From contig CAVYYP010000013.1 of NCBI GenBank assembly GCA_963772765.1, positions 186,059 through 250,058 of the forward strand: a DNA stretch of 64,000 nucleotides. Direction: 5' to 3'. This DNA comes from Candidatus Bathyarchaeota archaeon (GTDB taxonomy: Archaea > Thermoproteota > Bathyarchaeia > Bathyarchaeales > Bathyarchaeaceae). Under the pieces are notes generated by a model, which was not told where the DNA came from, searched no databases, and saw only the letters and a program-made list of their open reading frames with translations. Below, in pieces: positions 34,804-51,222 of the stretch (positions are counted from its first letter, which is position 1; each line of letters begins with the position of its first letter). A program made the translations under genes and the position numbers.

Positions 34804-35614
34804 AGACAAATTCGAAGAACTACAAAACAAACAAGAGGGCGTTCACATGCCCCACATCTACTATGGCGACCCCAACGAAGAGTTTTCCCAAAAGCTACTA
34901 GAGATACTTGTGGAAAATGGCGCAGACATTCTTGAGTTTGGGATACCCTTCTCTGACCCAACAGCGGATGGACCTACATTTCAAGCAGTATGCGAAAGGG
35001 CACTAGAGAACGGAATGACACCAAACCGATGCATTGAGGGCATAAAGAAGCTAAGATCAAAGGGAATAGACAATCCGATTGTAGTTACCACATACTATAA
35101 CATCCCCTATGTTATGGGTGTAGGAAATTTTCTGAAAAAAATCAAGGATACTGGCGCCCAAGCAGTGATTGTGCCTAATGTTCCAGTTGAAGAGGCTAGC
35201 GTTTTGATATCTGAAGGAAAAAAGACTGGAATACACCCGATATTCCAGATAGCCCCTACAACAACAGAAAAGAGATTAAAGAAAATCACGGATATCGCAT
35301 CAGGATTTCTTTATGTTATTGGCGTTGAGGGAGTTACTGGAGTAAGAGAGAGCCTTACTGATTCTACCCTGAAACTTGTTGAGCGTGTAAGGAAACACAC
35401 GGACATGCCGCTGCTTGCAGGATTTGGCATATCAACAAGACAACAAGCCTCAAATGTGGTTGCGGCAGGAGCAGATGGAGCAATAGCTGGAAGCGTATAC
35501 GCCAGAGTCTACGAGAAGAATTTAGCAAATCCTGAAAAAACATTGCCACAAATCGTTAATGTAGTTAATCAGATTAAAAAGGGATGCATCGAAGGCTATA
35601 AGCAGCGAAAATAA
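34793..35614 (+). CDS. trpA: Tryptophan synthase alpha chain
   Basis: EFGIPFSDPTADGP, GVTG and GFGI motifs. Confidence 0.95.
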   Translation: MNLEDKFEELQNKQEGVHMPHIYYGDPNEEFSQKLLEILVENGADILEFGIPFSDPTADGPTFQAVCERALENGMTPNRCIEGIKKLRSKGIDNPIVVTTYYNIPYVMGVGNFLKKIKDTGAQAVIVPNVPVEEASVLISEGKKTGIHPIFQIAPTTTEKRLKKITDIASGFLYVIGVEGVTGVRESLTDSTLKLVERVRKHTDMPLLAGFGISTRQQASNVVAAGADGAIAGSVYARVYEKNLANPEKTLPQIVNVVNQIKKGCIEGYKQRK

Positions 35615-35660
35615 ACTAAAGTCACACCAATCTCAATATTCAAAGTGAGGTACACGGACA

Positions 35661-35948
35661 ATGCAAATTAGCGAATTTCAAAAAATGATGCACCAACTCT
35701 ATTTTTCAAGAGACTCTGAACGAGGAAAAGACAAAACGTTAGATTGGCTTCAGGACGAAGTAGAAGAACTAAAGGAAGCTCTCAACGAAGGCGATAAAGA
35801 AGCGGCTGGAAAAGAGTTTGCTGACGTTTTGGCGTGGCTGGCCTCTTTAGCAAATGTAGTGAACATTGATTTAGAAAAGGCATCATTATCAAAATATCCG
35901 AACAAATGCCCAAAATGTAAACAGAATCCCTGCAACTGCCCATTCTAA
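35661..35948 (+). CDS. MazG-like nucleotide pyrophosphohydrolase with C-terminal Cys cluster
   Basis: EVEEL...EFADVLAWL motif; CPKC...CNC. Confidence 0.88.
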   Translation: MQISEFQKMMHQLYFSRDSERGKDKTLDWLQDEVEELKEALNEGDKEAAGKEFADVLAWLASLANVVNIDLEKASLSKYPNKCPKCKQNPCNCPF

Positions 35949-35955
35949 CTAATGT

Positions 35956-36219
35956 TCAGGTCAAAGTTTGTTGTCCAAGACCTGTTAATTCCCAAACATA
36001 TTACCTGCTACCCCTATGACGCAGAATGTTTTCGACTTCAAGAAGATGCAAATGATAAAGAACCGATGAATAACTCAAGCCCACTTCTTTGGAAATCTTT
36101 CTTGCAGTAGACATCCTAGCTTCGAGAACAGAAAGAATTGTTGTTCTAGCCACCAGACTAGGCAAAATGTTATGTTTCAATTTCAAGAAAGCGTTGGGAT
36201 GATGGGGTAACTGGAACAT
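35956..36219 (-). pseudogene. ArsR-like winged-helix protein interrupted by an in-frame TAA (36001-36003)
   Basis: HTH SARKISKEVGLSYSSVLYHLHLLE; frame continues after the stop as YVWELTGLGQQTLT*, a typical wing strand. Confidence 0.6.
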
Positions 36220-36269
36220 AAGCTCTCAAACCATGTTAGCTTTTAGAGCAAAAAAGATTTGCACAAAAA

Positions 36270-39200
36270 TTATGAAAACGATGTTAGACTAACCTGTCGA
36301 GGTTTCTTGCCCTCAAACAAAGTCAAGATTTCCTCATCTACCATACTGAGCCTCTGTGCATAATATTCCAGCAAACCATATTTCTTAACAAGTTCAGTTG
36401 CTGCCAGTAAGTACTTTTCTATTCCGCCACGGTACACCGTAAGAATCAGATCACTGTTACATGAGGGACACTTTCCCAGAAGAGGCATCCTCCTGAACTT
36501 TTTGTTACAGCCCTTACAGCGAAACTTTTGGGTACAAAAAGCCCTTAGATTTCCAGCGATGTCACGAATAAAATGAGTGTTCAAAACCTTCAAAGCCACC
36601 ACATCAACGTCTACAGCAGCAATTTTTTCTGCTAAAGCTAGTTGGCTTTGCAGCTTATCGGTCATTTTGCCAAACTTTTTGTAAACACTCTCATCATTGC
36701 CCATGTTCACATTAGAAACAGGGACAGTATATTTATAGCCCTCAAACTGTGCCGGAGTGTTCAACCGGTCTTCAATTGTGTCAATTATAGTGCTTATTTC
36801 TCGGGGTTCTGCCTGCTCCAAAGTCTTCTGATAAAAGGATAAAGGATACTTTCCTGCAACATCAACTTCGTGAGCTTGCCTTTGTACTTCCAGCGGATTT
36901 ACAATAGGGATAATCAAGATGGGAGCATCCATGATTCCACCTATGTGTGAAGGCAAAAACACTTTGGAGAAATTCAAGATTGTATCCAAGGCTAGCATCA
37001 CTGCATCTTCGTCACCGTCGCAGTCTCTACGTTTTGCTGAATGCCACATAGGATGCGCATAACAAACTTTCAAAGGAGTAAAACCAATAATTCTGCCAAC
37101 AATACCAACTGAGGTGTGCGGCGCCAAACCGATTATAAGGCGGCCAACCAGTTGGCTTGGTTTTTCTATATTATAATACGGAGGAAGATCGTATACCTTC
37201 TCGAGCAGTTCATCAAGAAATTTGGCCACACGAACAAAATATGTCGCACAGTTTCGAGGAATAATGATATCCTGAATTTTTAGCTCACAAATCTGGTCAG
37301 GACTAGTTAGAGTCTTTCCTTCATAATCATGGAGATATCCATTGGTTTTGAGCTGTTCAACGGAAACATTAATCTCTTTAGCAGTAAAGTGTGTTATAGG
37401 AGCGTTCGTAGCATCAAAACGAATTGTTCCATCTTTGAAGACAGACAAATTATGTTTTACCCGCAAAAGTCCTTTTTCTAGGAGTTCAGGCGTTTTTGTT
37501 TCGTTTGTCATACCCTTTACGCCTTTCACGAGACTAAACATTGGAAGCCCCAAATTTTTACTAGCCGAAGAAAGCAAATCACGCACGCTAACCTCTTGTC
37601 TAGAATAGCTCCGTGTTGAACAATTACATGCAGGACATTCATCAATATCGAATACTCTGCCACAATGAGGACAAACCTTTTCCAGAACAGTATCAGTTCC
37701 ACATTTTGGACATTTTAGCGTGAATGTAGTTTCATTGCATTTCAAACATCGACGGTTTACAAGATCAACTTCAATCACAACCTTTTTTGCTGCTTCAACA
37801 AGATTACGCCTCGAACCGCCAGCAAGACCAATAGGAAAAAGAGTGTGAACAAGAGGCTTCATCTCTCTGTGCTTAGCCTTTTCAGGGCGTCCCATTCGGG
37901 CGCCAACAAAACTTACACCTTTTTCGCGAACCTTAATTCCTGTAAACTCTTTGATAGCATCCATAACAGTTTCTGAGGAGCCTATTTGCGTTTCAGGAGA
38001 GTTTAATCCTAGACAAAAAGCAAAGATGTGTGCCTGATCACCAACAATTTGTAGGTTATTTAATATGACATCGTGGGGAATACAGAGTTTTTCAAGAAAA
38101 CCTTTCACAATTTTATCGTTAACCCCAACAATCTCTTGAACGGAATTATCAACAATCTTTGTTTCAGAAGATAATAACCATTTTCTTAGAACCAAAAAAT
38201 CCTCTAAAGAAAGAGTTTCCCAGAAAAAAGTATAGAAAGGATGAAGGGGCACCCCCAAAATTGACGATATAGTGATTACCTCCTTGGGAGTAGGTCTATT
38301 ATTAAAAACGTCAGCTAATAAATTCTCAACAGATTGGCTGGAAAAACCTAAGCTATCTGCAGCTTTCTTTAAATCGCCACCAAATTTCTGTTCAATAGCA
38401 GCAACAAGCTCTTCACGCCACCACTCCTCAGAGTAGCCTGATGGACGAAGAGTCTTATTGGTATAAAGAAAGTCACCAAAGCCTATGAGAATATCTCCCA
38501 GAAACAGTATTTTGTCAATCGATTTTTCTATTGATTTATAGTTCTCGAGAGTAACACGCACAACGGAGCCATTTTTCAGCCGTACCACAGGAGGCTCTAT
38601 ACTATCAACGGGAACAACAATTCCACCTTTTCCAGGACCCTCTAAACGAAGCTGAGTCCCAGCAGCAAGAAAGTTTTGAACAACAAACATCGTCACCGGA
38701 TGAATCCCAACCGCCGCAAGACCAGTATTCCTAGACCGACCATAACGAAGCCTAAAACCTCCATTCCGAGAAGGAAACGAAAAGATCGGTCGACCAGCAA
38801 TAACATCAGCCATAAATCCAGATTTCTTCTTCTTCGAAAACTCTTTTAGTTTTCCAAGCCATTCCCAGCCATCAATCCCAAGCTTCTCAATAGTTGTAAC
38901 TACTTTTGCAGCTCGTCCTACAATTCCATCATTTACTACTCTGAGGGCGCCTCCTCGAACATTATTGGTTTCAATTCGAGGCAGATTCCTATAAGACGAA
39001 ACCTCCACTGGATCAGACTCTGTGCCAGTAACCTCCACAGGAATCTGGGGAAGAGCTTTTCGTAACTCTTCATCAGAAATATGATACTGAAAGCGCGCTA
39101 TAGTCCGCTCAAATAGCCGAATTTCTTCGATAAATCGACCGATCTCATCTTCGGTTGGCTTATATCGGTCCAGATTAAGGAGACGCCGAATATGATCCCC

Positions 39201-39680
39201 AACAATTATTGTTAATGCCTGTTCGGTACCCCCCGCTGAACGTATTGGTCCAGCATAATAAATCGCCAAATAATTTGTTCGATCATTATTAGCCTTGATT
39301 TCCACACGGGCAATACCCTGTATAGGAGCGGCTGTTATTCCTTCAGTTAATATTGCCAACGCAGTTCTCATCGCTTGCTCTGCTGCCTCACGATCATCCA
39401 TAGCACCAAAGGAGCCATCAATTATTTGCTCAGTAATTCTGAAGGCAATAGCCTCTCGGGAAACATGTTTCTCGGCTAAATCACGAATACTTTTAGCAAC
39501 CCCGGATGGTCCCACTAAGCATTCCACTAGCTCAGCTAAATCCTTTGCAACTTCAGGTTCAGGAAAAAGAGCAGGATCCAGCCCTTTTTTTCGGGCTTCT
39601 CTAACAATAGAATATGTGTTCGCAAGAGTTTTTTCCAAGCCATCAGTGTACTGTTTGTACTCGTCGCTCATCGGGATCAT
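36270..39680 (-). CDS. polC: DNA polymerase D large subunit DP2
   Basis: AGPIRSAGGT, RMGRPEK and the catalytic RRDCDGDED motif; zinc fingers; no intein evident. Confidence 0.97.
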   Translation of the reverse strand: MIPMSDEYKQYTDGLEKTLANTYSIVREARKKGLDPALFPEPEVAKDLAELVECLVGPSGVAKSIRDLAEKHVSREAIAFRITEQIIDGSFGAMDDREAAEQAMRTALAILTEGITAAPIQGIARVEIKANNDRTNYLAIYYAGPIRSAGGTEQALTIIVGDHIRRLLNLDRYKPTEDEIGRFIEEIRLFERTIARFQYHISDEELRKALPQIPVEVTGTESDPVEVSSYRNLPRIETNNVRGGALRVVNDGIVGRAAKVVTTIEKLGIDGWEWLGKLKEFSKKKKSGFMADVIAGRPIFSFPSRNGGFRLRYGRSRNTGLAAVGIHPVTMFVVQNFLAAGTQLRLEGPGKGGIVVPVDSIEPPVVRLKNGSVVRVTLENYKSIEKSIDKILFLGDILIGFGDFLYTNKTLRPSGYSEEWWREELVAAIEQKFGGDLKKAADSLGFSSQSVENLLADVFNNRPTPKEVITISSILGVPLHPFYTFFWETLSLEDFLVLRKWLLSSETKIVDNSVQEIVGVNDKIVKGFLEKLCIPHDVILNNLQIVGDQAHIFAFCLGLNSPETQIGSSETVMDAIKEFTGIKVREKGVSFVGARMGRPEKAKHREMKPLVHTLFPIGLAGGSRRNLVEAAKKVVIEVDLVNRRCLKCNETTFTLKCPKCGTDTVLEKVCPHCGRVFDIDECPACNCSTRSYSRQEVSVRDLLSSASKNLGLPMFSLVKGVKGMTNETKTPELLEKGLLRVKHNLSVFKDGTIRFDATNAPITHFTAKEINVSVEQLKTNGYLHDYEGKTLTSPDQICELKIQDIIIPRNCATYFVRVAKFLDELLEKVYDLPPYYNIEKPSQLVGRLIIGLAPHTSVGIVGRIIGFTPLKVCYAHPMWHSAKRRDCDGDEDAVMLALDTILNFSKVFLPSHIGGIMDAPILIIPIVNPLEVQRQAHEVDVAGKYPLSFYQKTLEQAEPREISTIIDTIEDRLNTPAQFEGYKYTVPVSNVNMGNDESVYKKFGKMTDKLQSQLALAEKIAAVDVDVVALKVLNTHFIRDIAGNLRAFCTQKFRCKGCNKKFRRMPLLGKCPSCNSDLILTVYRGGIEKYLLAATELVKKYGLLEYYAQRLSMVDEEILTLFEGKKPRQVSLTSFS

Positions 39681-39788
39681 CAAATTCTGCCTCCTCACAT
39701 AAGTCATATAACCCGAGGTATTGAGCTTTTCTAAAAAAGAGAGTTCTCGAAAAATAATTGAGATAAGGTTCGGTCAAAAGGTCGTTTG

Positions 39789-40538
39789 TTATTTTTGGAT
39801 TTTCATGTTATTTACTAGTTCGGTTATCTTGCTTTTTCCTTTGCTTTCTTCTAGAACATTACCAGTAACAATTATACTGGCACCAGCTTTCACGACACGT
39901 TTCACCTGTTCACCAGTCCGTATTCCACCACCCACAATTAGAGGGACGTCAGTTACAGCTTTAACTGCACGCACCATATCTGCAGGCACAGGGTTTCCAA
40001 CTCCAGAACCAGCCTCTAGATAGACAAATCTCATACCGAAGTATTGGGCCGCCAAAGCATGTGCAGTAGCAAGCTCAGGTTTACTATAAGGAATAGGGGC
40101 AGCCTTTCCCACAACACTAACCGTGCCGCCGTCTCCGACTGTGATATATCCTAGAGGAATAGGCTCTAAACCAAATTTTTGGATAATAGGAGCCCCTAGG
40201 ATTTGAGCGCCTACAAGAAAATAGGGGTCTGTAGAGTTTAGAAGGGACATGAACCAGATAGCGTCAGCATATCTAGTTATTCCAGTGACATTATTAGGAA
40301 AAAGAATTATGGGAATTTCCACAGAATCTTTCAAAGCCTTTGTAACATCATCCAGATGTGAAGGCGAATCAGATGTTGAGCCTCCCACCATAATAGCAGC
40401 AGTATTGCAGGACTCGGAATCTCTAGCAATATGAGAAGCAGACTCTGGAGTGACCTTTTCTGGGTCAATAAGGGTCATATGAATGGTTCCTTCTTCCCTA
40501 ATTTTCTCTAGAAGATATTTTTCTACGCAACCAACCAT
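39789..40538 (-). CDS. Geranylgeranylglyceryl phosphate synthase
   Basis: LIDPEK, VGGS, YLEAGSG and VGGGIR motifs. Confidence 0.93.
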   Translation of the reverse strand: MVGCVEKYLLEKIREEGTIHMTLIDPEKVTPESASHIARDSESCNTAAIMVGGSTSDSPSHLDDVTKALKDSVEIPIILFPNNVTGITRYADAIWFMSLLNSTDPYFLVGAQILGAPIIQKFGLEPIPLGYITVGDGGTVSVVGKAAPIPYSKPELATAHALAAQYFGMRFVYLEAGSGVGNPVPADMVRAVKAVTDVPLIVGGGIRTGEQVKRVVKAGASIIVTGNVLEESKGKSKITELVNNMKIQK

Positions 40539-40551
40539 CTTGATCACTTAA

Positions 40552-40791
40552 CTAAGCTGCTAATCTTGAATAAAAAAGGTCTGTAAACTGGCAGTATATG
40601 TCAATCTCTCTAAAAGCAGGTCTAGTATCCAATTCTTCTGTTAATTCACAGCTACCACAACGAACCTTAGCACGTTCACCGCCAGGATATATCTCGACAT
40701 TGATTGCTTGTTTGCCGCATCGAGGACAAAGATATACAGTAGGCAACTTCTTTTTAGGCATATGAACGACTTTTCTTCTCCTTCTGCCCAT
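40552..40791 (-). CDS. elf1: Transcription elongation factor Elf1
   Basis: MGRRRRK...LPTVYLCPRC...CGSC...IDIYCQFTD. Confidence 0.9.
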   Translation of the reverse strand: MGRRRRKVVHMPKKKLPTVYLCPRCGKQAINVEIYPGGERAKVRCGSCELTEELDTRPAFREIDIYCQFTDLFYSRLAA

Positions 40792-41213
40792 TTTAAAGCC
40801 CCAGTAGCATTGAATCAGTTTAATCCAAGAATAAGATCTTGTTTGGAAAATGTAATTCAACATTAGCTTAAATATTTGTCCTAAAAACACAGAATAAAGC
40901 AACAAAAGAAAGAGAAAAATTGAACAAAAAGACAAAATCAAGAAATAAAAAATGGGAATAGTGAGGACCTTAAAAATATATTATGAAAATGAATCATATT
41001 TATGAAAAAATTAGATAATGGTAATTTTATTAAAAATAGTTATTAATTTATGCAGAGACATAATCTTGGAGAAATTAGTTGCTCATATGATTGTATCAAA
41101 AAATTCATGCAATAAACTTTCAGGTCAGTTTAAACTAAAGGCTGTAGAATGTGCAAAATCTTTAGATGTGCAGCTACAAAGAAAAATGTCTCGATCCACC
41201 CAAGGAGCATTAA

Positions 41214-41463
41214 GTGATCTATAATCTGTGATATCATAAGTATCACAAAAAATAAACATCCTCAAAATATATTACGGCATAAAAGCTCAAAAAAAGCTCT
41301 AAACATAAAAACAGCCCAAAAACGACTTATTACTGAGTGGTGATATTACGTGACGTCACACGTGATTCTGTGATAATCACACGTGATATTGTACCTCTGC
41401 TTTAGAAATCACAATTATCACATCTCAACAGTTATAGAAAGGAGGGAAACAAAGGTGCATCAC
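41214..41463. repeat. Array 1 of GTGAT/ATCAC half-sites and GTGAYRTCAC palindromes
   Basis: About 12 half-sites in 250 bp, e.g. GTGATATTAC-GTGACGTCAC-AC-GTGATTCT-GTGATAATCAC-AC-GTGATATT at 41340-41390. Confidence 0.85.
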
Positions 41464-41750
41464 TAACAAGTAAGACTTGAAGTGAAATAACGACTGTAGT
41501 GAGAGGGAAAAAATTTCAGAAAGTGTACAAAACAAAAGCCAAAAAAACACATGTTGTTTATTGGCGCATCATATATTACAATCAACTGTATCATAGTGGT
41601 AAAAGATAAAGTATATTGTAAAAATATTATCATTGATTGTGTATATCAACTATTTTCTATAATAGTTTTGCATGATCTAAAATAATGTTTTTATGGGTGA
41701 GCATGGTATACAAAAATGTATCCTTTGGAGAAGGGGTTGAAAAGCAAAAC

Positions 41751-42227
41751 TTGAAAACCAAGGAAAAAGCCCAAAATTGGCTAAATTACTCTTTAAGTGA
41801 CCCGCTAGTAAAAATACTCTCAAAAAATAGCAATCTAACAAAAATACAGCTAGAAACGTTATTAATTGATGTTTTAGCTGAAAACATGTTCGAAAGGGGC
41901 TTAAAATACGACGAAAAAGCCAGATTACGAATTTTAGCCGTAAGTAGGGGCGCATTTAACAGGACTTTAAGACAGGCCAGACATAATGTAACACAGTCAA
42001 TTTACACAATTTTGTTACTTGGATATCTAGGAATTCTTGAAGAAATCAGCCTAGAACCATATCTAGAGGCTGCAAACAAGCTTAAAAAATACGTAGACAC
42101 CCAAAGAGAATCGGTCAAAAAGAAACCAAAAGAAGAACACATCAGAATGGTAGCACAACTCCACGAAGAACTCAAAAACAGCCTAGAAGAAATTTCTAAC
42201 CCACGAAGAATGTCAAAAAGACCGTGA
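41751..42227 (+). CDS. Tfx-like / sigma70-region-4-like HTH DNA-binding protein (putative)
   Basis: SNLTKIQLETL...YDEKA...VSRGAFNRTLRQARHNV resembles the Tfx N-terminal HTH (S.LT..Q..VL...EEIA...SRANVS..EKRAR.NI); TTG start after GGGGTTGA. Confidence 0.6.
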   Translation: MKTKEKAQNWLNYSLSDPLVKILSKNSNLTKIQLETLLIDVLAENMFERGLKYDEKARLRILAVSRGAFNRTLRQARHNVTQSIYTILLLGYLGILEEISLEPYLEAANKLKKYVDTQRESVKKKPKEEHIRMVAQLHEELKNSLEEISNPRRMSKRP

Positions 42228-42589
42228 TATCACAAATCACAACCAATTTATCACAAAAAATACAATCAGTTTCTACCAAAACAAGACGGCATACAAGAAA
42301 GGCATAAGATCACAATAAAGAAAAAACAGCCAGAACAAAAACCGCAATTTAACCGTTTTTTTAAAAATAAACCGATTTTATGAATTTTAAGTTTTAAAAA
42401 GGTCAAAGGCAAGAAGAGATAAACATATAACACAATCACAAAGCAGGAAGAAGACTGAGACCCGATTAAAAGCGATTTGTGAGGTGTGATGTCACGATTA
42501 TCAAAGGTGGGAAAACATTTAAGTTTACTTATATACTAGTGTGATGTGTGATTCCGAATGCATATCACAACATATCACGCTGAAATCAC
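42223..42589. repeat. Array 2 of GTGAT/ATCAC half-sites and palindromes
   Basis: GTGATATCAC at 42223 (overlaps the stop codon), GTGATGTCAC at 42486, and about 9 further half-sites. Confidence 0.85.
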
Positions 42590-42607
42590 ATGTGAGGTGT
42601 ATAGGTA

Positions 42608-43300
42608 ATGGTTTCAGAGATTATGCTAGTAACAACGACAATATTGCTTGTGGGAACGATTGCAGCATTGTTTCTGTATTACAGAAGGATAGCAGGTCTA
42701 CGCCAAGAATATTATAGTGCAAAAAATGTTGTGAATGATATAGTATTGAGTGTGGATGACCAATTCAGGAGACAAAAAAATAGGGTTCTTTTTATTGTCC
42801 AAAAAATGGAAAACGTCCTGTTAGAGAACAAAAAAGTTGAAGAAAAAGTAACTGATTTGACTAAAGCAATAAGCGAGACTCCACAGATTGAAGAGAAACT
42901 TTCTGTAAAAATTGAGGAAATGCGCAGTGAAGTTGAGGGAATAAAAGTCGCTCAGGATAACGTCATGAAGAAACTTGTTGAGATAGAGAAAATAAAAAGA
43001 GAACCATATGTTTCCGAAACAAAGATTGAAGCAGCTATTCCAATAAGAAAAGAGAAAGCATTGGATCCATTAACTGAGACCGAGTTGATGGTCCTTGAGA
43101 CAATAAACAAAGAAGGGGACAAGACTGCCCCTGAAATCCGCGAAAAAATTGGACTCACACGTGAGCATAGTGCTCGCCTAATGAAGAAACTATACAAGGA
43201 CGGATACCTAGAAAGGGACACACATAAAATGCCATATGTCTACCGACTAAAAGATGAGATGCAGAAGATATTGAAGAAAAGGGAAGCCGGTGCTTCTTAG
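42608..43300 (+). CDS. Membrane-anchored coiled-coil protein with a C-terminal winged-helix (MarR-like) domain
   Basis: N-terminal TM (IMLVTTTILLVGTIAALFLYY), ~100-aa heptad region, LTETELMVL...TAPEIREKIGLTREHSARLMKKLYKDGYLER...PYVYRL. Confidence 0.85.
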   Translation: MVSEIMLVTTTILLVGTIAALFLYYRRIAGLRQEYYSAKNVVNDIVLSVDDQFRRQKNRVLFIVQKMENVLLENKKVEEKVTDLTKAISETPQIEEKLSVKIEEMRSEVEGIKVAQDNVMKKLVEIEKIKREPYVSETKIEAAIPIRKEKALDPLTETELMVLETINKEGDKTAPEIREKIGLTREHSARLMKKLYKDGYLERDTHKMPYVYRLKDEMQKILKKREAGAS

Positions 43301-44863
43301 GACGATTCTTCAGAGGTTAGAGATTTTCCAACAGCCTTGAGTCGTTTTAGTTTAGCATCCATTTCAGATAGATGTTCTGAAGGAGCCAATTGGTAGTCAA
43401 CTTTTTCTCTAGTTTTCAGGTAATCAGGGTAATGAATGACTTTTATAGGAACAGCAAACCGAATCTGTGGCTCTGAAATGAGCAATGCTTCCCCAATATC
43501 CAGCATCTTGATTTCTGTGTCACTGTATTCCATGTAAGGCGTGTTTTGGGTAAGATAGTCTCGGTCTCGCTTCAATTCAGTTTTCATTATAACTTTGGTC
43601 CAAAGCTCAGCAAACACATCACGATTGATCTTGGAAGGTCTAGGGGTTACTGCATTTAGCCCAACTCTGTATTTTCGGTAACGTAAGGGCAATGTCTGAA
43701 AAGATTGTTTTATGTATTTCAGGATCAAGAAATTCGTGAGCTTCTTCAAGCGTAATCAGAAGAGTTGGAAGTTTTTTCCAAGCTTCAAAATTGTTTTCCC
43801 AAGACTGTTTATAGTGTTGCGCAACATTTGTTGCTGTGAGGCACGTGACATTTTGTTGTTCTTCAGAAGTTAAACCAGAAATATCGATAAGACAGGTTAT
43901 TCCCTTGCTTAGGTTCTGTACAACATCCTCTATGAAGTTATAATCAGAAGGAGGATAAAGATGTCGTGGAAGGTCAGAAAGCCTACTCATAAGAGCACTG
44001 ATAACATTTTTTTGATTATAATTAATGACCCTTCCAACTCCAGAATAGCCTTCTTGCCGATATACTTCAAGTGATTGCTCAACCCAACATTTTCCAAGTT
44101 GTTCATATAGCCTTCGAGCAACCCTGATTTGAGGTCGTCCGATGTCAGGAAAAATTGTCCATAAACGCCCAGGAGTAAGAGTCCTCAAACCAATACACAA
44201 CTTACCATCTCTGGCTGAATAATAACGAACTTTACTATGAAAAAGAGGGTGATCACCTAAACCACTCTCTGAACCAATGTCTTTACCCGATAATAATTGA
44301 CCAGCAAAATCAAAAATAAGTCCGACTGTTTCAGGGTTATCAATTATGCGAGCGTTTAGAATAAGTTCAGTGTTTGTTTTTCCAGAACCAGTCATTCCGA
44401 ACATACCCATCATTTTTGGGATTGCTTTAGCATTAAGACCCACGATACCCAAAACTTCCTCACCTGAACGAAGGCGCCCAATCTCTAATTCACCTGAAAG
44501 CCGCAAAACTGAATAGTCTTCTTCATTTATTGTGTAAACCTGATCCATATAGTTGGGATTAAAGGTTGGCGAACGAATATTCCCAGCATTACTCTCAAGC
44601 AACAAGACCGCATCGACATGTCTAAAGCTTGAATAAGGTCCAAAGGACTCTTTTCCCTCAGCTTCTCGAAGCTGCTCATTAGTCTTTAGCGTAGAGGAAC
44701 TTCCAGCATCTACAACACGCGCATAAAAACTTCGAGTCTCAGAATTGATCCGAACAATCTGACCAAAAGATAACGTTACTCCTTGATTCAGGAAAAAAGA
44801 GACTGTGTCTCCTTTAACTTCTCGAACAAATCCGACTGGTTCATATTCTGTCAAAGTTCTCAT
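43297..44863 (-). CDS. HerA/FtsK-family ATPase (+1 frameshift near 43681)
   Basis: HAS-barrel-like N-terminus, Walker A GMTGSGKT, Walker B LITLEEAH; YRKYRVGL (RK motif) appears after correcting the frame. Confidence 0.88.
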
Positions 44864-45866
44864 CGCCCTCAAAAAGGTTTGATAATCCATGTATTTTGTC
44901 AGCAAAGCTGCAGGAAAGCTCTTCCATACGAAGAGGCTCTAAGATTCCTGCAGTAGCCAACTCTTTTTCGATTAAATCATAATACTCTAGAAGTTTTGAG
45001 TTTGACGCTCCAGAAAATTCATGAGCAAGCCAAAGTGTAACAGGATACCCCAAACATCTAGGATCTTCAGAAAGCGAAGTAAGGGGAGAAAGCAGCTCGG
45101 AGATATCTCCTGAAGTTGGGTCCATTATATCACAACGAAAGATGTGTTGGCTGTCTTCACATAGCTTCACAAGAGATATATCCCCGTACAGATGGTCAGC
45201 CATGTTCGCTGTTTTTACAGGATGGTAAACCCAAAGAGGGAAAGATGTAAGTATACTTGTTGACGCCATAAAATCTCTTCCTTTCTCATCACACAACATG
45301 GGAGACTGCTTACTCACAGCAAGAAGATTAACTTTTTTACGAAGAGCCTCTTCGTATAACGAAGTATGGAACCCTCGTTTTCCACCAAAAAAACTCGCAC
45401 CATCCAACAAAACATAATCTCCTTCACCTACAAGAAGAGTTTTCCCCTCTTTTGTTAAAGTCCCAGTAGACTCTTCGTGAAGAAGATTCAAGGCCATTTC
45501 ACTTTCTAGTTGTAATCGTCGATCAATCAAAAAGTTTGAACGGTAACGCCGGTCTCCTACTGCACATACGATGCTTTCATCATAATTCCACTGTACGTCA
45601 CGATTCTCTACTGAGGCATATGCAACGCGCATCAGGTAAATACCCCAATTATGGGCTCGTTTCAAGGTTCGAGTTGAACAATCTACCGCGAAAAACCTTG
45701 AGTTAGATTTTTTCATTTTTTTCAAAGATGTGAATTTTTTGATGTCTGGTCTTGTGACAATCAATGGTTGTGGTTTGACATCGCTAAAACCTATTTGGCG
45801 CCCTTTGTCAACATATGATTTGAGCTTAGTTTTAAGTTCATTTAGGTTTCTCTGAAGGTTACTCAT
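44841..45866 (-). CDS. NurA-family nuclease
   Basis: FAVDCS, VLLDGA, LAVSK and GYPVTLWLAHE motifs; overlaps the HerA start. Confidence 0.85.
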   Translation of the reverse strand: MSNLQRNLNELKTKLKSYVDKGRQIGFSDVKPQPLIVTRPDIKKFTSLKKMKKSNSRFFAVDCSTRTLKRAHNWGIYLMRVAYASVENRDVQWNYDESIVCAVGDRRYRSNFLIDRRLQLESEMALNLLHEESTGTLTKEGKTLLVGEGDYVLLDGASFFGGKRGFHTSLYEEALRKKVNLLAVSKQSPMLCDEKGRDFMASTSILTSFPLWVYHPVKTANMADHLYGDISLVKLCEDSQHIFRCDIMDPTSGDISELLSPLTSLSEDPRCLGYPVTLWLAHEFSGASNSKLLEYYDLIEKELATAGILEPLRMEELSCSFADKIHGLSNLFEGDENFDRI

Positions 45867-45930
45867 ATGACCGCGTTCTCCTCAAGGAGTCACAAGTAGT
45901 ATCAAGTATCCTAACAAATTATGTTATTTA

Positions 45931-46341
45931 TTATCTTCCGTTAACCTGATAGTTTGAAATTGCAGTTACGAGTCTGTAACGTAACTGGTTTGAAGAACCT
46001 CGTCTAAGGAAAAAGCCTCTATCTGATAGACGAGACAAATAAGTTGAGATTGTACTCAACCGAATTGGTTCATTAAACTGCTTTTCATACGCCGACTGTA
46101 GGTCCTTTGAAGAAAACCATCCAACTGGATAGCTCTTTTCTGCAACTAAACGAACCTTTTGTATTTTAGGCATTTCAGACGCTGACTTCTGCAACTTAGC
46201 ATTAACAGTTGGCATTCCTCCCAAAAGTTCAACCAAATCAAGTAAACGAAGAGCCTTATCTCGCGTAACTTGACCTTCAAAAGTAATCGTATAACGATCC
46301 CCACCATTGAAGATTTCTACACGCATTTTTTTGGCAGGCAT
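45931..46341 (-). CDS. Origin-adjacent hypothetical protein with a C-terminal winged helix
   Basis: WFSSKDL...IRLSTISTYLSRLSDRG...YRL pattern; transcribed divergently from cdc6 across oriC. Confidence 0.75.
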   Translation of the reverse strand: MPAKKMRVEIFNGGDRYTITFEGQVTRDKALRLLDLVELLGGMPTVNAKLQKSASEMPKIQKVRLVAEKSYPVGWFSSKDLQSAYEKQFNEPIRLSTISTYLSRLSDRGFFLRRGSSNQLRYRLVTAISNYQVNGR

Positions 46342-46538
46342 GCTGTACACCAGTTACGAAAGTGTTCACTAGTTACGACTTCACAAGTTATAGGCATTGT
46401 GGTTAAATTTGCAAAAATAAAAAGCCTAAAAATAGCCTTAAAAGCTAAAATATTTAAAATTTGCAGTTTTCTAGCTTCACAAGCTTCACTATTGTTCACG
46501 TTTACAAAATCAACAAACAAAAAGGAATGGTTCTTATT

Positions 46539-46997
46539 TTCCAGTAGAAACCAAGGGGTAACCTTTTCACTAAAAACAGACCAGAAATGAAGATTTTTCT
46601 GAAAAATAGATGTATTAAACTGAAGGTTTCCTTTTTGATTCACAGCAATTCACAAGGAAGTAAACGAAGAGTTTTACAAGGAATAACTAGGAGGCTCTTC
46701 GTAAGTTTCAATACTATTGTGTCTTTGAAGATACAGACAAAGTAACATATCTGTTTTTACCACAGACCCCTTTGTTTCCATTGTACCAAAGAAAAGAGTC
46801 CAGAGTCCAAATTACAACTTTAAGTTAAGAAATTATATGGTTAACTCTAATTTTTTTGATGAATATTAATAAATAATGAATTCTAAGATAATTCCCGTGA
46901 GATTCTTTTTTATAAAAATATTATACTCGTAAAAAATGATTCTTTTTTTGTCTAAACTCCAGATTAACCTTAATTTTTCCATGAGAAATATAGGGGT
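46539..46997. other. oriC: Replication origin oriC: three ORB boxes and an AT-rich unwinding element
   Basis: ORB(+) TTCCAGTAGAAACCAAGGGGT 46539-46559; ORB(-) GTACAATGGAAACAAAGGGGT 46766-46786; ORB(+) TTCCATGAGAAATATAGGGGT 46977-46997; very AT-rich 46810-46975 between the inverted pair; directly upstream of cdc6. Confidence 0.9.
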
Positions 46998-47175
46998 GCG
47001 AGACCAGTAAACATGTCTTCAAAACTACAAATAACCTAAAACTTATTTTATCCCGAAAGTTTTGTTCCCCTTTAGCTTTTTGTGCAAATTGTCTACTTTT
47101 TTTTATGACAGTTCTTATGTACTCGAACTACAATCGAGGCAATAATTTCACACCATCTAAAGGAGCCTGCCAGAA

Positions 47176-48411
47176 CTGACAGAAATTGACACACTTGACG
47201 ATGTTTTCGACCGTTTTCTCAGTAATACATGCATTTTCAAGGACCGAGAAGTATTAAGGCATGACTACATCCCAAACAAACTTCCACACCGTGACAAACA
47301 AATTCATTGTCTAGGCGGAATTGTTGCTCCAGTCTTGCGAGGTTCACCATGCTCAAACGCCTTTATTTATGGCAAAACAGGAACAGGAAAAACAGCAGTC
47401 ACAAAATATGTTCTAAACAAGCTTTCTTCCAAAGCATACGAGCTAGGAGCCCCAATTGGAGTTTGCTATGTAAACTGCCGCCTGGCTGGCACAGAATATC
47501 GTGTCCTATCCAATTTGTGTGAAGCTCTAGATGTAAAGGTTCCATTTACTGGTTTAGCTGTAGGAGAAGTCTTTGACAGATTCAAACAAGGTCTAGACCA
47601 GCAAAGAAAAGTATTCATTGTTGTCCTTGACGAAATTGACGCTTTGATAAAAGCTCGTGGAGACACACTGCTTTATGAATTAACCAGAGTTAATGAGACT
47701 CTTCGTCACGGTCGAACTTGCATCATAGGAATCTCAAACGATCTACGATTCAAAGAATTTTTGGACCCACGCGTTTTAAGCTCATTGAGTGAAGAAGAAA
47801 TTGTTTTCAGACCTTATGACGCAACCGAATTACAAGACATTCTCTGGAGACGTACTCAAATAGCCTTCTCTGAAGGAGCTCTACTCGATAGCGCAGTAGC
47901 CTTATGTGCTGCACTTGCCGCCGCAGAACACGGTGATGCACGACGTGCTCTGGACTTACTTCGTGTTGCAGGCGAACTTGCAGAACGACAAGGCGTAGAC
48001 ACTGTTACTGAAGAGCACGTGAGAGAAGCAGAAAAACGTGTTGAGCATGATAGAATCGTAGAAGTTTTGGAGAATCTTCCAGTTCACTCAAAATTGGTTT
48101 TGTGTAGCGTCTACTTACTGGGCAAAACAAAGTTAAACTACACAATTACTGGAGACATTTACGGAATATATTGTGAACTTTGCGACCAAACAGGTCTATC
48201 ACCATTAACTCAAAGGCGGGTGAGTGGCTTGATAAGTGAATTAGACATGATTGGTTTATTGAATGCACGCGTTGTAAGTATGGGTCGACATGGACGGACT
48301 AAAAAAATTCGCTTGGGCATAGGACGCGGTCTTATCAGAAACGTTTTTTCTAACAGTGACCGTTTCAGTGAACTACTAAAATATGTCCCAAACTGCCTTG
48401 AAAGCCGATAA
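47176..48411 (+). CDS. cdc6: Orc1/Cdc6 replication initiator (probable CTG start)
   Basis: In-frame upstream IFKDREVLRHDYIPNKLPHRD; Walker A GKTGTGKT, Walker B VLDEID, GDARRALDLLR, C-terminal wHTH with GRHGRT. Confidence 0.96.
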   Translation: MTEIDTLDDVFDRFLSNTCIFKDREVLRHDYIPNKLPHRDKQIHCLGGIVAPVLRGSPCSNAFIYGKTGTGKTAVTKYVLNKLSSKAYELGAPIGVCYVNCRLAGTEYRVLSNLCEALDVKVPFTGLAVGEVFDRFKQGLDQQRKVFIVVLDEIDALIKARGDTLLYELTRVNETLRHGRTCIIGISNDLRFKEFLDPRVLSSLSEEEIVFRPYDATELQDILWRRTQIAFSEGALLDSAVALCAALAAAEHGDARRALDLLRVAGELAERQGVDTVTEEHVREAEKRVEHDRIVEVLENLPVHSKLVLCSVYLLGKTKLNYTITGDIYGIYCELCDQTGLSPLTQRRVSGLISELDMIGLLNARVVSMGRHGRTKKIRLGIGRGLIRNVFSNSDRFSELLKYVPNCLESR

Positions 48412-48433
48412 TTCTTTGTTTCTCTTTTTATGT

Positions 48434-49972
48434 TCACCAAGGTTGTGTAAAATCTATTGTCGAAATCATAGATGTTTGAAGATTTACAAACGGAACGATT
48501 CCGGGAGTGGGCATAAGCCCCATCTTTTGTTGAAAGTCAGTTTGTTCTTGCCATGCTCCAGAGTTCACGATAAGTGTTCCCTTATGTCTATTACATTTCA
48601 TTATGTGGACATGCCCTGCATGAAAGATGTCTGGGGTTCTTTCTATAACCATGAAATCTCTTTTTTCTGGGGATATAGGGGTTCTTTCTCCATAAATTGG
48701 TGCAAGATGCCTGCTCTGTAACAACAGTTTCATTGATTTGTCTGGTGTATCAAAACTGACATTTGGAGCAACAGCAGCTATGTCATCCAAACTTCGTCCG
48801 TGAAATAGAAGCAATTCAACTCCATGAAGTGTAACAGTTGACGGATTCCCCAAGGAGTATATGCTTCGTGACTCTAGCAGTGGTTCTGCGTAGTCTTTTG
48901 GGATTGCAGGTTGCGGTAATGCTTTTCTAGATGCATCATGGTTTCCCGGTATCACTATTATTTCAATGTGTTCAGGAACCTGTTCTAGAAGTTTTGCGGC
49001 TGCCTGATATTGTTCGTAAATATCCGTTATCGATAAACTTTCCAGCTGCCCTGGGTATATTCCTATCCCGTCGACAATATCACCTGCTATTACCAAATAT
49101 TTGGTGTGACTAGCGATTTCTCTGAGTTTTTCGTTGCCTCTTTCTCCTTTTAACCAGCTTAGAAACCTGTTGAATTCTTTTTCCATGAACTTGTCGCTTC
49201 CAACATGGATGTCAGACATTAATGCTGCATAGACTGGAATTGGAGCTTTGCGGGGTGTTTTTTGAGGAAGTTCTGGTAAAATGAAGTCTTTTGCAATAAT
49301 TAGGTCATTGTTTCCTTTTATCGCATTTACACAGATAACTTGGTCTAAGAGCAGAGAATGTGCTTTCGCCAAAATTTCCTTACTTAACTTGGGAGATACA
49401 AGTACCGTAGCACTTGCTTCCAAGTCCTCAATTTTTATAAATAGCCTTTCTTTAGATTCGATCTTTTCTGTAACCATACCTATAATGCTAACTTTTGATT
49501 TGGTTGGCGATTTTAGGGCAACCGAAATAGGTATGGCACTTTTTACGTCCATTCTTTTCTTAAGAATTTTCTTTAATCTTTCAAACCTATCCTTGAAATA
49601 TCCCAGATATTCGTTGATAGAGCCTGTTGTACATATGTTGTCTGTCGGGTCCACCACAACCTTAACTTCGCTATCAACATCCTTTGCATACGGTCTAAAA
49701 GTCCTCCTTGACCCAACATTGCCTATCTCCGAATCAATTTGTAGAGACTCCTCGCTGCACGGCTCTATTTTCATTGTCTCAAGAAAGCCTCGGTTTATAA
49801 AAAGAGGCTTTTGTGGCAAATCCCTAATTTTTTTTACAGCCTCTTCCATTAAATAGAGGGGATCTTCTTTCTTTGCTACTGTATTCAAGAATTCAAAAGC
49901 TTCTTTGTCTAGTTGAAATCCAGACTCTATTGTGAAGGAAACGGCTTTTTGTAGCCTTTCACCCTCACTCAT
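48434..49972 (-). CDS. polB: DNA polymerase D small subunit DP1
   Basis: SDIHVGS, GDIVDG, PGNHD and HAGHVH phosphoesterase motifs; OB domain. Confidence 0.96.
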   Translation of the reverse strand: MSEGERLQKAVSFTIESGFQLDKEAFEFLNTVAKKEDPLYLMEEAVKKIRDLPQKPLFINRGFLETMKIEPCSEESLQIDSEIGNVGSRRTFRPYAKDVDSEVKVVVDPTDNICTTGSINEYLGYFKDRFERLKKILKKRMDVKSAIPISVALKSPTKSKVSIIGMVTEKIESKERLFIKIEDLEASATVLVSPKLSKEILAKAHSLLLDQVICVNAIKGNNDLIIAKDFILPELPQKTPRKAPIPVYAALMSDIHVGSDKFMEKEFNRFLSWLKGERGNEKLREIASHTKYLVIAGDIVDGIGIYPGQLESLSITDIYEQYQAAAKLLEQVPEHIEIIVIPGNHDASRKALPQPAIPKDYAEPLLESRSIYSLGNPSTVTLHGVELLLFHGRSLDDIAAVAPNVSFDTPDKSMKLLLQSRHLAPIYGERTPISPEKRDFMVIERTPDIFHAGHVHIMKCNRHKGTLIVNSGAWQEQTDFQQKMGLMPTPGIVPFVNLQTSMISTIDFTQPW

Positions 49973-50186
49973 GATTTCTTCCTCGTTTAATTCCCTCTAT
50001 TGAAACCGTAATATGTGCTTCGTATCCTATTAATCATGTTATTTCCCCCTCAGGCACCATATTGTTCCTAGTTTTGGATGTCTATACTAGTTAGAACATT
50101 CTTCTATCCTTCAAATGTTTTCTAGTTAACTCTTAATAATTCGTATTGCTTTAAACTAAATTTAATATTCCTTTGAGGATTCAAAG

Positions 50187-51167
50187 ATGGACCTTCGCAA
50201 GATTCAGAAAACTAGCAGCGGAACATTTTTTGTCTGCTTGCCAAAAGCTTGGGCTGAAAAAAATGGACTTGATCGCGGTACACACGTTTCTATTACAGAA
50301 ACCGCAGATGGAACACTTGTTATTAATCCAAAATATGATGTGGAACGAAATCCTCAAGTAGCAGTAATTACGCCCTCTCCCCTACTTGACCGCTTAATCA
50401 TTGAGAAATATTTGTTAGGTTATGACATCATTCAAGTTGAAGCAAAAGACAGAATAAGCCCATTAGACCGCGAACGGGTAAAACATGCCTCAACCCAGTT
50501 GGTTGGTCTCGAAATTGTTGAAGAAAATCATTCAAAAATTGTTATGCAATGCCTCTTAGAACCATCTACATTTCCGCCACAAAAAATACTTCGAAGAGAA
50601 TACTCTATTGTTTCCGGAGTGCACCGTGATGCTGTAACAGCCCTTCTTGAAGGCGACCAAGAATTAGCTAAAAATGTTGTAGCAAGAGACAACGAAGTTA
50701 ACCGCTTATACTTCCTTTTGGTACGCATTCTTCGAACAGTAATTCAGAATCCGGGATTAAGTGAAAAACTCGGAATTTTACCAATAGATTGCTTAGATTA
50801 CCGTTTAGCTGCGAGCTTAGTTGAGTCTATAGGCGATTATGCTGCTTCCATAGGTGAGATAGTTATCGATTTAGCTGGTGCCAAAATTCCGAACAATCTT
50901 TCAGACCTTATTCTTCAACTTCACAAAACAGCCTATGAAGCGCATGAAAATGCGATTAGCGCAGTATTCTATCATGATGTTTCAATTGCAGAGTCTGTGA
51001 GAGCTGAAAGAGAAAAAGTTGATGCCGTTTTTCACGAAATTGAAACATCTATCCTCGATCTTCCTGCCGAGATTGGACAGCACCTGCTTGCTATTGCCTC
51101 TTCCATAAATCGAATTTACGACAACAGCTTAGACATCGCAGATCTTGTTATGCCAAAGCTTCCGTGA
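50187..51167 (+). CDS. PhoU-family regulator with an N-terminal AbrB domain
   Basis: RKIQKT..TFFVCLPKAW; DNEVNRLYFL and ESIGD PhoU repeats. Confidence 0.88.
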   Translation: MDLRKIQKTSSGTFFVCLPKAWAEKNGLDRGTHVSITETADGTLVINPKYDVERNPQVAVITPSPLLDRLIIEKYLLGYDIIQVEAKDRISPLDRERVKHASTQLVGLEIVEENHSKIVMQCLLEPSTFPPQKILRREYSIVSGVHRDAVTALLEGDQELAKNVVARDNEVNRLYFLLVRILRTVIQNPGLSEKLGILPIDCLDYRLAASLVESIGDYAASIGEIVIDLAGAKIPNNLSDLILQLHKTAYEAHENAISAVFYHDVSIAESVRAEREKVDAVFHEIETSILDLPAEIGQHLLAIASSINRIYDNSLDIADLVMPKLP

Positions 51168-51222
51168 TATGTTTAAATTACTAATATTCCTTCTAATTTT
51201 TTAGGAAGTAGTGTGTGGCAGA

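Follow-up and report, generated by a model that had tools for sequence, protein, structure and literature searches.

During sporulation of Bacillus subtilis, the coiled-coil DNA binder RacA recognizes repeated palindromic sites (ram) around the replication origin and is fastened to the cell envelope via DivIVA. Another DNA binder, the centromere-binding AspA, is a small soluble protein encoded in the aspA-parB-parA operon of the Sulfolobus plasmid pNOB8. Noc, with its NBS sites in B. subtilis, and RocS of Streptococcus pneumoniae recruit chromosomal DNA to the membrane, and RocS is membrane-bound, acts in chromosome segregation and works with ParB, according to published reports (PMC4331003, bioRxiv 10.1101/359943). 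Here, we describe from computational analysis a locus in a 64,000-nucleotide stretch of DNA from a Candidatus Bathyarchaeota archaeon (assembly GCA_963772765.1, contig CAVYYP010000013.1; hereafter the window), where two arrays of GTGAT/ATCAC half-sites flank a helix-turn-helix (HTH) gene (gene A) and lead up to a gene (gene B) whose product, a predicted membrane-anchored winged-helix protein, is the likely binder of the arrays. No description of this module of A, B and arrays was found in the literature, supplementary files lying outside the scope of the search.

With RacA, B would share the role of a site-specific binder with a coiled coil and with clustered palindromic sites near the origin. 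The two differ in architecture. RacA carries a MerR-type HTH at its N-terminus and contacts the membrane indirectly, by way of a C-terminal coiled coil that binds DivIVA, whereas B has a predicted N-terminal anchor and a C-terminal MarR-type winged helix. They also differ in the spread of their sites, which extend over hundreds of kilobases for RacA and lie in one 1.4-kb patch around its own gene for the archaeal B. Noc is a ParB-type protein with an amphipathic helix, has sites scattered round the chromosome and acts in nucleoid occlusion, in contrast to the single origin-side cluster of B; from both Noc and RocS, B is set apart by having no ParB-like domain and by a hydrophobic N-terminal segment of transmembrane length. 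The likeness to ParB/parS and to the archaeal SegB/SegA system lies in clustered sites near the origin, partly in coding sequence and beside the gene of the binder (for SegAB, see the review PMC7617429). However, B has neither the ParB N-terminal domain nor an adjacent ParA/SegA, and a putative membrane anchor stands in the place of the ATPase. With MarR/TrmB-type archaeal regulators (Lrs14, Sta1), B has a winged-helix core of 55–60 residues in common. MarR proteins, however, are soluble and about 140–150 amino acids (aa) long, with N- and C-terminal dimerisation helices that pack around the winged helix and with a ligand pocket; in their place, B has a putative transmembrane segment, then a helix some 100 residues long, then a linker. 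In function, RacA/ram, Noc/NBS, RocS, ParB/parS, SegAB and AspA come nearest. B nevertheless shares only the winged-helix core with MarR proteins, has a domain order opposite to that of RacA, no ParB domain and no adjacent ATPase, and its match to AspA is one of generic fold. The features of the module are the following.

41214..41463, no strand: array 1, with 11 GTGAT/ATCAC half-sites
41706..41723, plus strand: palindrome GTATACAAAAATGTATCC (ATAC-N6-GTAT), just 5' of the start of gene A and 3' of a TATA-like box
41751..42227, plus strand: gene A, 158 aa from the TTG at 41751 (longest open reading frame (ORF) from 41685)
42224..42254, no strand: proximal block of array 2, the dyad GTGATATCAC followed by AAATCACA and another ATCACA
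42309..42439, no strand: isolated half-sites of array 2, two ATCAC (42309, 42435) in an A-rich spacer
42479..42589, no strand: array 2, promoter block of gene B, which begins with GTGAG-GT-GTGATGTCAC (42479-42495)
42608..43300, plus strand: gene B, 230 aa, with a Pfam MarR match, a structure model and an alignment of 27 sequences

An earlier, sequence-only reading of the window had counted about 25 half-sites in two non-coding stretches and had proposed that they form a centromere-like site bound by one of the two HTH proteins. Exact GTGAT/ATCAC matches numbered 11 in 41214-41463 and 12 in 42224-42589, so that two stretches amounting to about 1% of the length of the window hold 23 of its 99 half-sites, yet the total for the whole window is unenriched (99 versus a dinucleotide-shuffle mean of 119). 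In the genome of the window (G000, a 1,917,470-bp assembly in which the window lies on contig C13), the half-site occurs 2644 times (1.38 per kb). The two densest 300-bp windows of this genome both fall at the A-B locus with 11 and 8 sites, and the runner-up anywhere has 5. All four palindromes named by that reading are present (GTGATATTAC at 41340, GTGACGTCAC at 41350, GTGATATCAC at 42224 and GTGATGTCAC at 42486). The full dyad GTGAYRTCAC has five copies in the genome, where base composition predicts about 6.5. Three of them are at the locus (41350, 42224, 42486), and the other two are isolated, one within an ORF and one in a spacer. In G000, for which the uniqueness of the cluster was computed genome-wide, the motif clusters at no other locus than this one. 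Five other genomes were compared through their palindromes only, and in these 2–4 of the 5–9 palindromes per genome lie at the orthologous locus and the others are singletons. A generic repeat finder returned no longer repeat family, the signal being the 5-6-bp half-site. A known RNA was rejected as the cause of the long non-coding stretches, because an Rfam scan of 35000-52000 at E <= 1 gave two sub-threshold chance matches only.

The arrays flank gene A on both sides, one site lies on its stop codon and array 2 reaches the Shine-Dalgarno sequence of B, a layout that had been recognized correctly from the letters. Array 1 has a core at 41340-41387 that reads GTGATATTAC-GTGACGTCAC-AC-GTGAT-TCT-GTGAT-A-ATCAC-AC-GTGAT and, in this genus, lies about 240 bp 5' of the promoter palindrome of A without overlapping it; the block GTGAC(G/C)TCACAyGTGATyyTGTGATAATCACAyGTGAT is kept in the same-genus loci (L052-L060). 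In array 2, the dyad at 42224 overlaps the TGA stop of gene A (42225-42227), and the two isolated ATCAC at 42309 and 42435 are not conserved in position among loci. The promoter of B has a TATA-like box, TTATATA (42529-42535), within the conserved CTTAAGTTTACTTATATACTA, and is followed by two direct GTGAT (42541, 42548) and by three ATCAC (42564, 42574, 42585) spaced 10–11 bp apart, the last of which (42585-42589) ends 4 nt short of the Shine-Dalgarno sequence GAGGTG (42594-42599), ahead of the ATG at 42608. Across 326 clustered sites from 25 loci, the half-site consensus is TGTGAT, with T at position -1 in 63%, and arrangements are irregular, the 10-bp dyad occurring 35 times alongside direct repeats at 7, 10 and 11 bp. 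Such an irregular grammar would be easier to reconcile with DNA-binding domains held by flexible linkers than with a MarR dimer of rigid geometry.

The module is conserved in sequence and position. The gene order DP2-pcrB-elf1-[gap]-A-B-(herA-nurA)-w139-spacer-cdc6-DP1 was found, as far as the contig reaches, in 20 order-level loci, and most relatives have A next to B in the same orientation. At the order level, B is present in 35 of 41 genomes and A in 37, and among 201 Bathyarchaeia genomes of at least 85% completeness, A was detected in 175 and B in 160. A further 40 loci from distant families showed linkage to elf1/DP2 on one side and to w139/cdc6/DP1 on the other. The A-B spacer (78–401 bp) carries 4–11 exact half-sites in the window and in 20 of 20 order-level loci, as opposed to 0.85–3.0 per kb in the rest of the locus, and a dyad lies on or just past the stop codon of A in 20 of these 21 sequences. 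Within this spacer, the layout of a GTGAC/GTGATGTCAC block 5' of the TATA-like box (CTTAAGTTTACTTATATACTA), a direct GTGAT pair and three ATCAC is kept; the order and spacing of the promoter block are the same in nine of nine same-genus loci and recognisable across the order. With a phylum-wide profile, relatives of B were found in 96 of 151 genomes, which is an upper bound since many are partial (stalk and winged helix).

The arrangement also extends beyond the class. Five loci from one family found with this profile (L101-L104, L112) have the order DP2-pcrB-A-B-w139-spacer-cdc6-DP1 and carry 8–12 GTGAT/ATCAC per 300 bp at A-B versus 2.3–3.3 per kb locally, an enrichment measured within loci of 11-19 kb. 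Their B-like proteins (198–214 aa) have a hydrophobic N-terminal segment, and a short coiled coil and a linker connect it to a winged helix that contains SREHTSRLMKKL. The B of L102 is identical to an NCBI protein named 'winged helix DNA-binding protein [Nitrosarchaeum koreense]', and the nearest relatives are labelled Nitrosarchaeum or Nitrosopumilales, which indicates that the module spans Bathyarchaeia and the ammonia-oxidising Nitrososphaeria. The A-B arrays and both genes are hence syntenic with cdc6 and the PolD genes across Bathyarchaeia and in Nitrosopumilaceae, in line with the origin linkage proposed beforehand. Homologues run into the thousands: Bathyarchaeia-type sequences include 3012 of A and 1173 of B, and the Nitrosarchaeum form has 4037. 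Among the best 80 of 585 contig homologues of B, the named records nearest to the B of the window are Candidatus Bathyarchaeum or Bathyarchaeia, and all are labelled Bathyarchaeia, Bathyarchaeota or Thermoproteota with the exception of L172. This full-length homologue (41% identity) lies on a metagenome-assembled genome named 'Candidatus Krumholzibacteriaceae bacterium' and is probably a binning error rather than a bacterial occurrence. A mobile-element or plasmid partition cassette was considered and rejected on the vertical conservation of the module in a fixed chromosomal neighbourhood in two classes; none of the proteins scanned was an integrase-like neighbour.

Variants of the module were observed as well. 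The B-like proteins of L108, L111, L113 and L114 (158–210 aa) have a coiled coil and a winged helix with (A/S/V)REH(V/T)(A/S)R and no N-terminal hydrophobic segment, and look like a soluble variant of the B family; in L108, L111 and L113 they adjoin w139, and in L111 also cdc6. A compact form occurs in L109 (8518-9314) and L110 (8926-9709), where a B-like protein of 146–147 aa with a hydrophobic N-terminus, a short linker and a winged helix is encoded directly 3' of an A-like gene, and GTGAT/GTGAC sites lie 5' of the palindrome of A and within A. In several lineages (L067, L077, L078, L105, L107, L108), a fusion gene for an XRE-type HTH and a CBS-like domain (consensus ...EDIRRLRK..GLTQ.ELA..AGVSQSLI.RIE.G.VDPRLSTL...) lies just 5' of B.

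The array persists even where coding sequence occupies its place. In families f24, f21 and f27, hypF lies between A and B on the opposite strand and holds 14 (L062), 16 (L063), 22 (L080), 15 (L094), 17 (L095) and 16 (L078) half-sites; hypF in other arrangements has 8 (L077) and 9 (L096). These sites fall at conserved alignment columns and include cGTGATATCACa-N4-ATCACa, read as R-D-I-T-x-N-H-I, which has the same architecture as the sites at the stop codon of A. In G000, hypF lies 137 kb away; its 2253 bp contain 3 sites, no more than background, and its residues at those columns are unrelated. In several other families, a block ATCACacGTGAC-N6-GTGATaaGTGACaTCACa lies about 650 bp 5' of the promoter of A inside a divergent aminotransferase gene, where it encodes V-M-S-L-I-T-D-R-S-R-V-I; the nearest G000 homologue of this gene is only 35% identical and no close orthologue, so that hypF served for the comparison instead. 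In Nitrosopumilaceae, it is the 3' end of the A reading frame that contains the sites. The retention of sites in hypF, the aminotransferase gene and A suggests that selection keeps the A-B array whether the DNA is coding or not, a behaviour that would be typical of architectural or centromere-like sites. The sites are not confined to the core promoter that a simple operator would regulate, as they also occur 240–650 bp 5' of the promoter of A, at its stop codon and in coding genes.

To narrow down which protein goes with which site, we compared 61 loci (the window and L041-L100) and scored the densest 300 bp from 1.2 kb 5' of A to the start of B. In 42 of the 44 loci with B, at least 5 exact half-sites were present per 300 bp, and in 15 of the 17 loci without B there were at most 2. 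Medians for the 6-mer TGTGAY were 6 (range 3–10) with B versus 1 (range 0–5) without it. In 11 of the 15 site-poor B-less loci, A directly adjoins w139; the remaining four lie on contigs that are short or arranged in another way and belong to families in which no B was detected (f26 0/8, f28 0/4). The recognition helix of A (VSRGAFNRT.KQA) is the same in B-less genomes, and the target of A should accordingly persist there. What persists in the B-less loci is the ATAC-N6-GTAT palindrome at the start of A, not the GTGAT cluster. Furthermore, the invariant recognition helix of B parallels the invariant motif. Since the arrays track B, the palindrome persists with A and the B helix does not vary, we assign TGTGAY to B, the likely binder of the arrays, and ATAC-N6-GTAT at its own start most likely to A.

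The N-terminus of B consists of four residues, a hydrophobic stretch of about 21 residues (about 5–27) and YYRRI, and this stretch with trailing basic residues is found in 27 of 27 aligned B sequences. With only about 4 residues preceding the hydrophobic segment, there is no room for a sensor domain outside the membrane, and by the positive-inside rule the basic residues that follow suggest that the stalk and the winged helix lie on the cytoplasmic side. In the AlphaFold model (predicted local distance difference test score (pLDDT) 83.8), B forms one helix from 2 to 130, a disordered segment (131–156) and a winged helix (157–228). Throughout the class, all 27 sequences compared share the same recognition helix, TREH(T/S)ARLMKKL. 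Residues 155–206 match Pfam MarR (PF01047) at 6.3e-7 (29.6 bits, cut-off 24.6), and matches to the NCBIfam models of Lrs14 and Sta1 were weak, far under their cut-offs. Foldseek returned many MarR structures (best E 1.2e-4) and also the winged-helix centromere binders AspA (PDB 5k5q, 4rs8; E 4.7e-4, TM score 0.67 and root-mean-square deviation (rmsd) 3.0 over 76 columns) and TubR (3m9a; E 2.5e-3). AspA ranks second and tenth (E 4.7e-4 and 1.0e-3), interleaved with MarR repressors, which points to a shared fold only, and long alignments of B to whole MarR chains gave an rmsd of 15–17 Å. The stalk alone weakly matched a DivIVA profile (E 0.065), and no ParB-type family was among the Pfam matches of A or B at E <= 0.1. 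A prediction of a two-copy B complex (score 0.02, mark 0.42) was counted neither way. In public databases, B is annotated as 'MarR family transcriptional regulator' or 'winged helix DNA-binding protein'.

The most likely start of gene A is the TTG at 41751 and not the ATG at 41685, judging by upstream stops in relatives and public gene calls of 156–158 aa, which are annotated as 'hypothetical'. The structure model of A is confident and all-helical (pLDDT 87.4, predicted template modelling score 0.79), with an N-terminal HTH (VSRGAFNRTLRQA) that weakly resembles those of the sigma-region-4 or LuxR type and a C-terminal generic helical hairpin. The earlier label "Tfx-like" describes for A no more than a resemblance of fold, as no Pfam and no NCBIfam family matched at E <= 0.1. 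A profile built from 39 A sequences found no match among PDB sequences, Foldseek hits to SigD4 and sigma region 4 were weak (E 2.8–6.8, probabilities 0.2–0.6), and a match to the DNA-binding domain of EsrB (Z 7.2 over residues 26–99) is inside the stated noise range of the tool. Taken together, the structure models fit a membrane-anchored stalk with a winged helix for B and an HTH protein for A, as had been supposed. The palindrome GTATACAAAAATGTATCC, located at the promoter or transcription start of A, is a candidate for an operator bound by A itself. Its 18-nt form is a single copy in G000, and palindromes of the ATAC-N6-GTAT type lie at the same position in nearly all 61 loci, the B-less ones included, and also in Nitrosopumilaceae. 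A wider regulon of A was rejected, since 21 copies of ATAC-N6-GTAT in G000 are at control level (10–38). Elsewhere in G000, an AT-rich spacer 5' of a predicted ATPase gene (C8:38880-39010) holds several copies of a different local repeat resembling TGTACAATAACTAATATACAGT, among them a pair of ATAC-N6-GTAT palindromes spaced by 24 bp (38927/38951).

The module lies 3.95 kb (end of array 2) to 5.3 kb (start of array 1) from a pair of elements resembling origin recognition boxes (ORBs), inside the DP2...cdc6-DP1 replication cluster, as the sequence-only reading had placed it. The following features are concerned.

36270-39707, minus strand: DP2
45931..46350, minus strand: w139, 139 aa, probably with a winged helix at the C-terminus; family matches all below significance
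46540..46785, no strand: ORB-like inverted pair, TCCAGTAGAAACCAAGGGG at 46540-46558 and CCCCTTTGTTTCCATTGTA at 46767-46785

The ORB-like pair lies with AT-rich DNA in a 985-bp non-coding spacer 5' of cdc6. In nearly all loci the w139-cdc6 spacer is non-coding and 0.7-1 kb long, and the strict pattern GGAAAC-N1-3-ARGGG occurs in 13 of 40 such spacers and only twice elsewhere in those loci. From the adjacency of cdc6, the conserved spacer, the ORB-like pair and the specificity of the strict pattern, we infer that this spacer is the origin. For comparison, a single mapped origin is reported for Nitrosopumilus maritimus in a review (PMC4010727). In the genus of the window, herA-nurA lies between B and w139, and 4-5.3 kb separate the arrays from the ORB-like pair. 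Where B adjoins w139, as it does in most other lineages, the arrays are about 1–1.5 kb from the spacer. No array was found inside the w139-cdc6 spacer in the loci compared. In Nitrosopumilaceae, this spacer holds 7–12 TGTTAA on either strand per 400 bp (L102 ~10601, L103 ~8001, L104 ~10701, L112 ~9901), which may be origin repeats distinct from the GTGAT arrays.

The other neighbours are a PcrB-family gene, an Elf1-like zinc ribbon, a HerA/NurA pair, cdc6 and DP1. In almost all loci of the two classes (L041-L114), w139 flanks the spacer ahead of cdc6 on the side away from cdc6, and its product is a candidate origin-associated factor that we regard as context and not as a shown part of the module. 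No ParA/SegA ATPase lies beside the module, whose neighbours are herA, nurA, w139, elf1 and pcrB. The six matches to PF13614 (AAA_31; ParA/MinD-type) in G000 are on contigs C9, C14 and C6, none on C13, which bears out the absence noted from the window. Several gene models in the neighbourhood were also noted. The Elf1-like zinc ribbon (40552-40941, minus strand; Pfam 4.8e-14) probably has an internal start, its relatives aligning from about residue 45–50 of the 129-aa ORF. HerA (minus strand, 43297-44905) is split into overlapping ORFs in different frames, of 421 aa (43640-44905) and 150 aa (43297-43749). Judged by two same-genus loci, where herA is a single ORF of 526–527 aa, the herA of the window has a frameshift in this assembly, which marks either a pseudogene or an error of assembly. 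In kin, herA and B converge, and about 14 nt are common to their 3' ends. The cdc6 ORF is listed from a TTG at 47335, inside the Walker A region; the frame and the sequence 5' of it (window ~47160-47335) suggest a true start about 170 nt earlier.

On these grounds, we tentatively propose, at somewhat below even confidence, that B is the protein bound to the arrays, that it represses its own gene and that it holds the DNA near the origin at the membrane. B would be inserted into the membrane by its N-terminus, probably as a dimer, and a stalk about 100 residues long followed by a flexible 25-residue linker would present its winged helices. The winged helices would recognize the half-site TGTGAY and occupy about two dozen half-sites around the B gene, so that many B molecules on the 1.4-kb patch could form a membrane-bound nucleoprotein patch beside the origin. 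Because the sites bracket the TATA box and the 5' leader of B, occupancy should shut off B, which would be made until the sites are filled, and replication of the locus, by doubling the sites, may reopen the promoter. With the B gene inside its own cluster, a co-translationally inserted protein would be made beside its target. Origin-proximal DNA would in this way be fastened to the cytoplasmic membrane, as a direct tether or as a centromere-like patch with no dedicated ATPase nearby, and gene A would be a separate HTH regulator. In the sequence-only reading, autoregulation figured as the main alternative to tethering. With the promoter of B itself wrapped in sites, it would rather be part of the picture. 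The interpretation given with that reading is partly supported: each of the computational checks put forward there, on clustering, synteny and models, turned out in its favour, and the co-occurrence of the arrays with B points to B as the likely binder. From sequence, roles in segregation, replication control and division-site marking cannot be told apart.

Several observations weigh against this proposal. The hydrophobic N-terminus of B was called by eye and from the AlphaFold helix, and some other families of the phylum have a B-like protein without it, so that anchoring is not universal. The binding specificity of B is assigned by co-occurrence only, and two loci with B have few sites (L043 with 4, L072 with 3). 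Among B-less loci, L067 has 7 sites with no detectable B, next to a run of N just downstream, and L093 has an array at a contig end, its kin L094 and L095 carrying B 2.5 kb further on. Mapped on a cdc6 tree of 41 loci, the absence of B calls for a minimum of 2 changes, as f23 stands apart from f26+f14+f28 and the B-containing f33/f35 are nested between; the co-occurrence hence amounts to about two independent losses and not 15, and it is equally expected if the arrays were operators through which A controls B. In five Nitrosopumilaceae genomes, a direct GTGAT triplet proved a poor discriminator, being clustered in G307 only (4 of 8 matches at the locus), with 0–1 match at the locus in the other four and 0–8 control matches. 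The origin, finally, is an inferred one, the strict ORB pattern being present in just 13 of the 40 spacers, and the GC skew is irregular with no clean V and a local cumulative minimum about 4 kb from the ORB-like pair, which neither confirms nor refutes it.

The same data can be read in other ways. The locus might be an elaborate autoregulatory switch and nothing else, in which B (or A and B) represses A and B cooperatively through looping, the remote and coding sites are auxiliary operators and the anchor has another function or sequesters B. The sites 5' of the TATA box of B and from there to the Shine-Dalgarno sequence do occupy the classic position of an archaeal repressor, the fold of B is of the MarR type, as one of its public names says, and clusters 0.3–0.9 kb apart could loop. 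Auxiliary operators such as lacO2 in lacZ and the internal gal operator are well known, coding-embedded ones among them. Yet a factor that targets only its own locus has no output unless DNA binding is its function, and B lacks an external sensor domain. Such a switch would also leave the strict tie to the cdc6 spacer without an explanation, and about 23 half-sites, kept over the age of two classes and forced into neighbouring coding genes, exceed what auxiliary operators need. We therefore hold this explanation to be doubtful, if the most serious of the three considered. More improbable is that A, not B, binds the GTGAT arrays and controls B, whose winged helix would then bind origin DNA, non-specific DNA or a protein. 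This would account for arrays that flank gene A with one dyad on its stop codon, and the HTH of A is also highly conserved and A itself somewhat more widespread (175 versus 160 of 201 genomes). However, 15 B-less loci keep the recognition helix of A and have no GTGAT cluster within 1.2 kb on either side, ATAC-N6-GTAT persists at the start of A in these loci, and it is the recognition helix of B that is invariant like the motif.

Least probable to us is a replication-control element instead of a segregation tether, in which arrays coated by B sequester or insulate the origin, form a barrier to forks or transcription, or act as a datA-like sink, with or without w139. B, w139, the spacer and cdc6 are immediate neighbours in most lineages, the module sits among the replication genes DP1, DP2 and cdc6, and sites that double once the origin fires would provide a replication-coupled signal. 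On the other hand, the arrays never lie within the w139-cdc6 spacer, and B-less clades keep the same origin neighbourhood, indicating that B is dispensable for origin function there. Nothing separates replication control from a segregation tether, and the two are not exclusive. Returning to anchoring by B, a more far-reaching version, which we consider unlikely as a whole, would be that Bathyarchaeia and ammonia-oxidising Nitrososphaeria attach the origin directly to the membrane via a dedicated integral-membrane winged-helix protein that loads in cis on a centromere-like array around its own gene, the origin copies being separated by membrane and cell growth without a ParA-type motor, and that this arrangement is ancestral to a large part of Thermoproteota.

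How archaeal chromosomes are positioned and segregated is largely unexplained, and the module offers a concrete candidate that is found very widely and for which the protein, the DNA site and the place on the chromosome are all defined. Its site array is also a clear case of one that imposes its sequence on unrelated coding genes, namely hypF, the aminotransferase gene and gene A. Because the module is present in cultured ammonia oxidisers, binding, localisation and replication-coupled expression are directly testable. If the far-reaching version of anchoring is true, these archaea would show in living cells the attachment of origin to membrane that Jacob, Brenner and Cuzin reportedly postulated in their replicon model.

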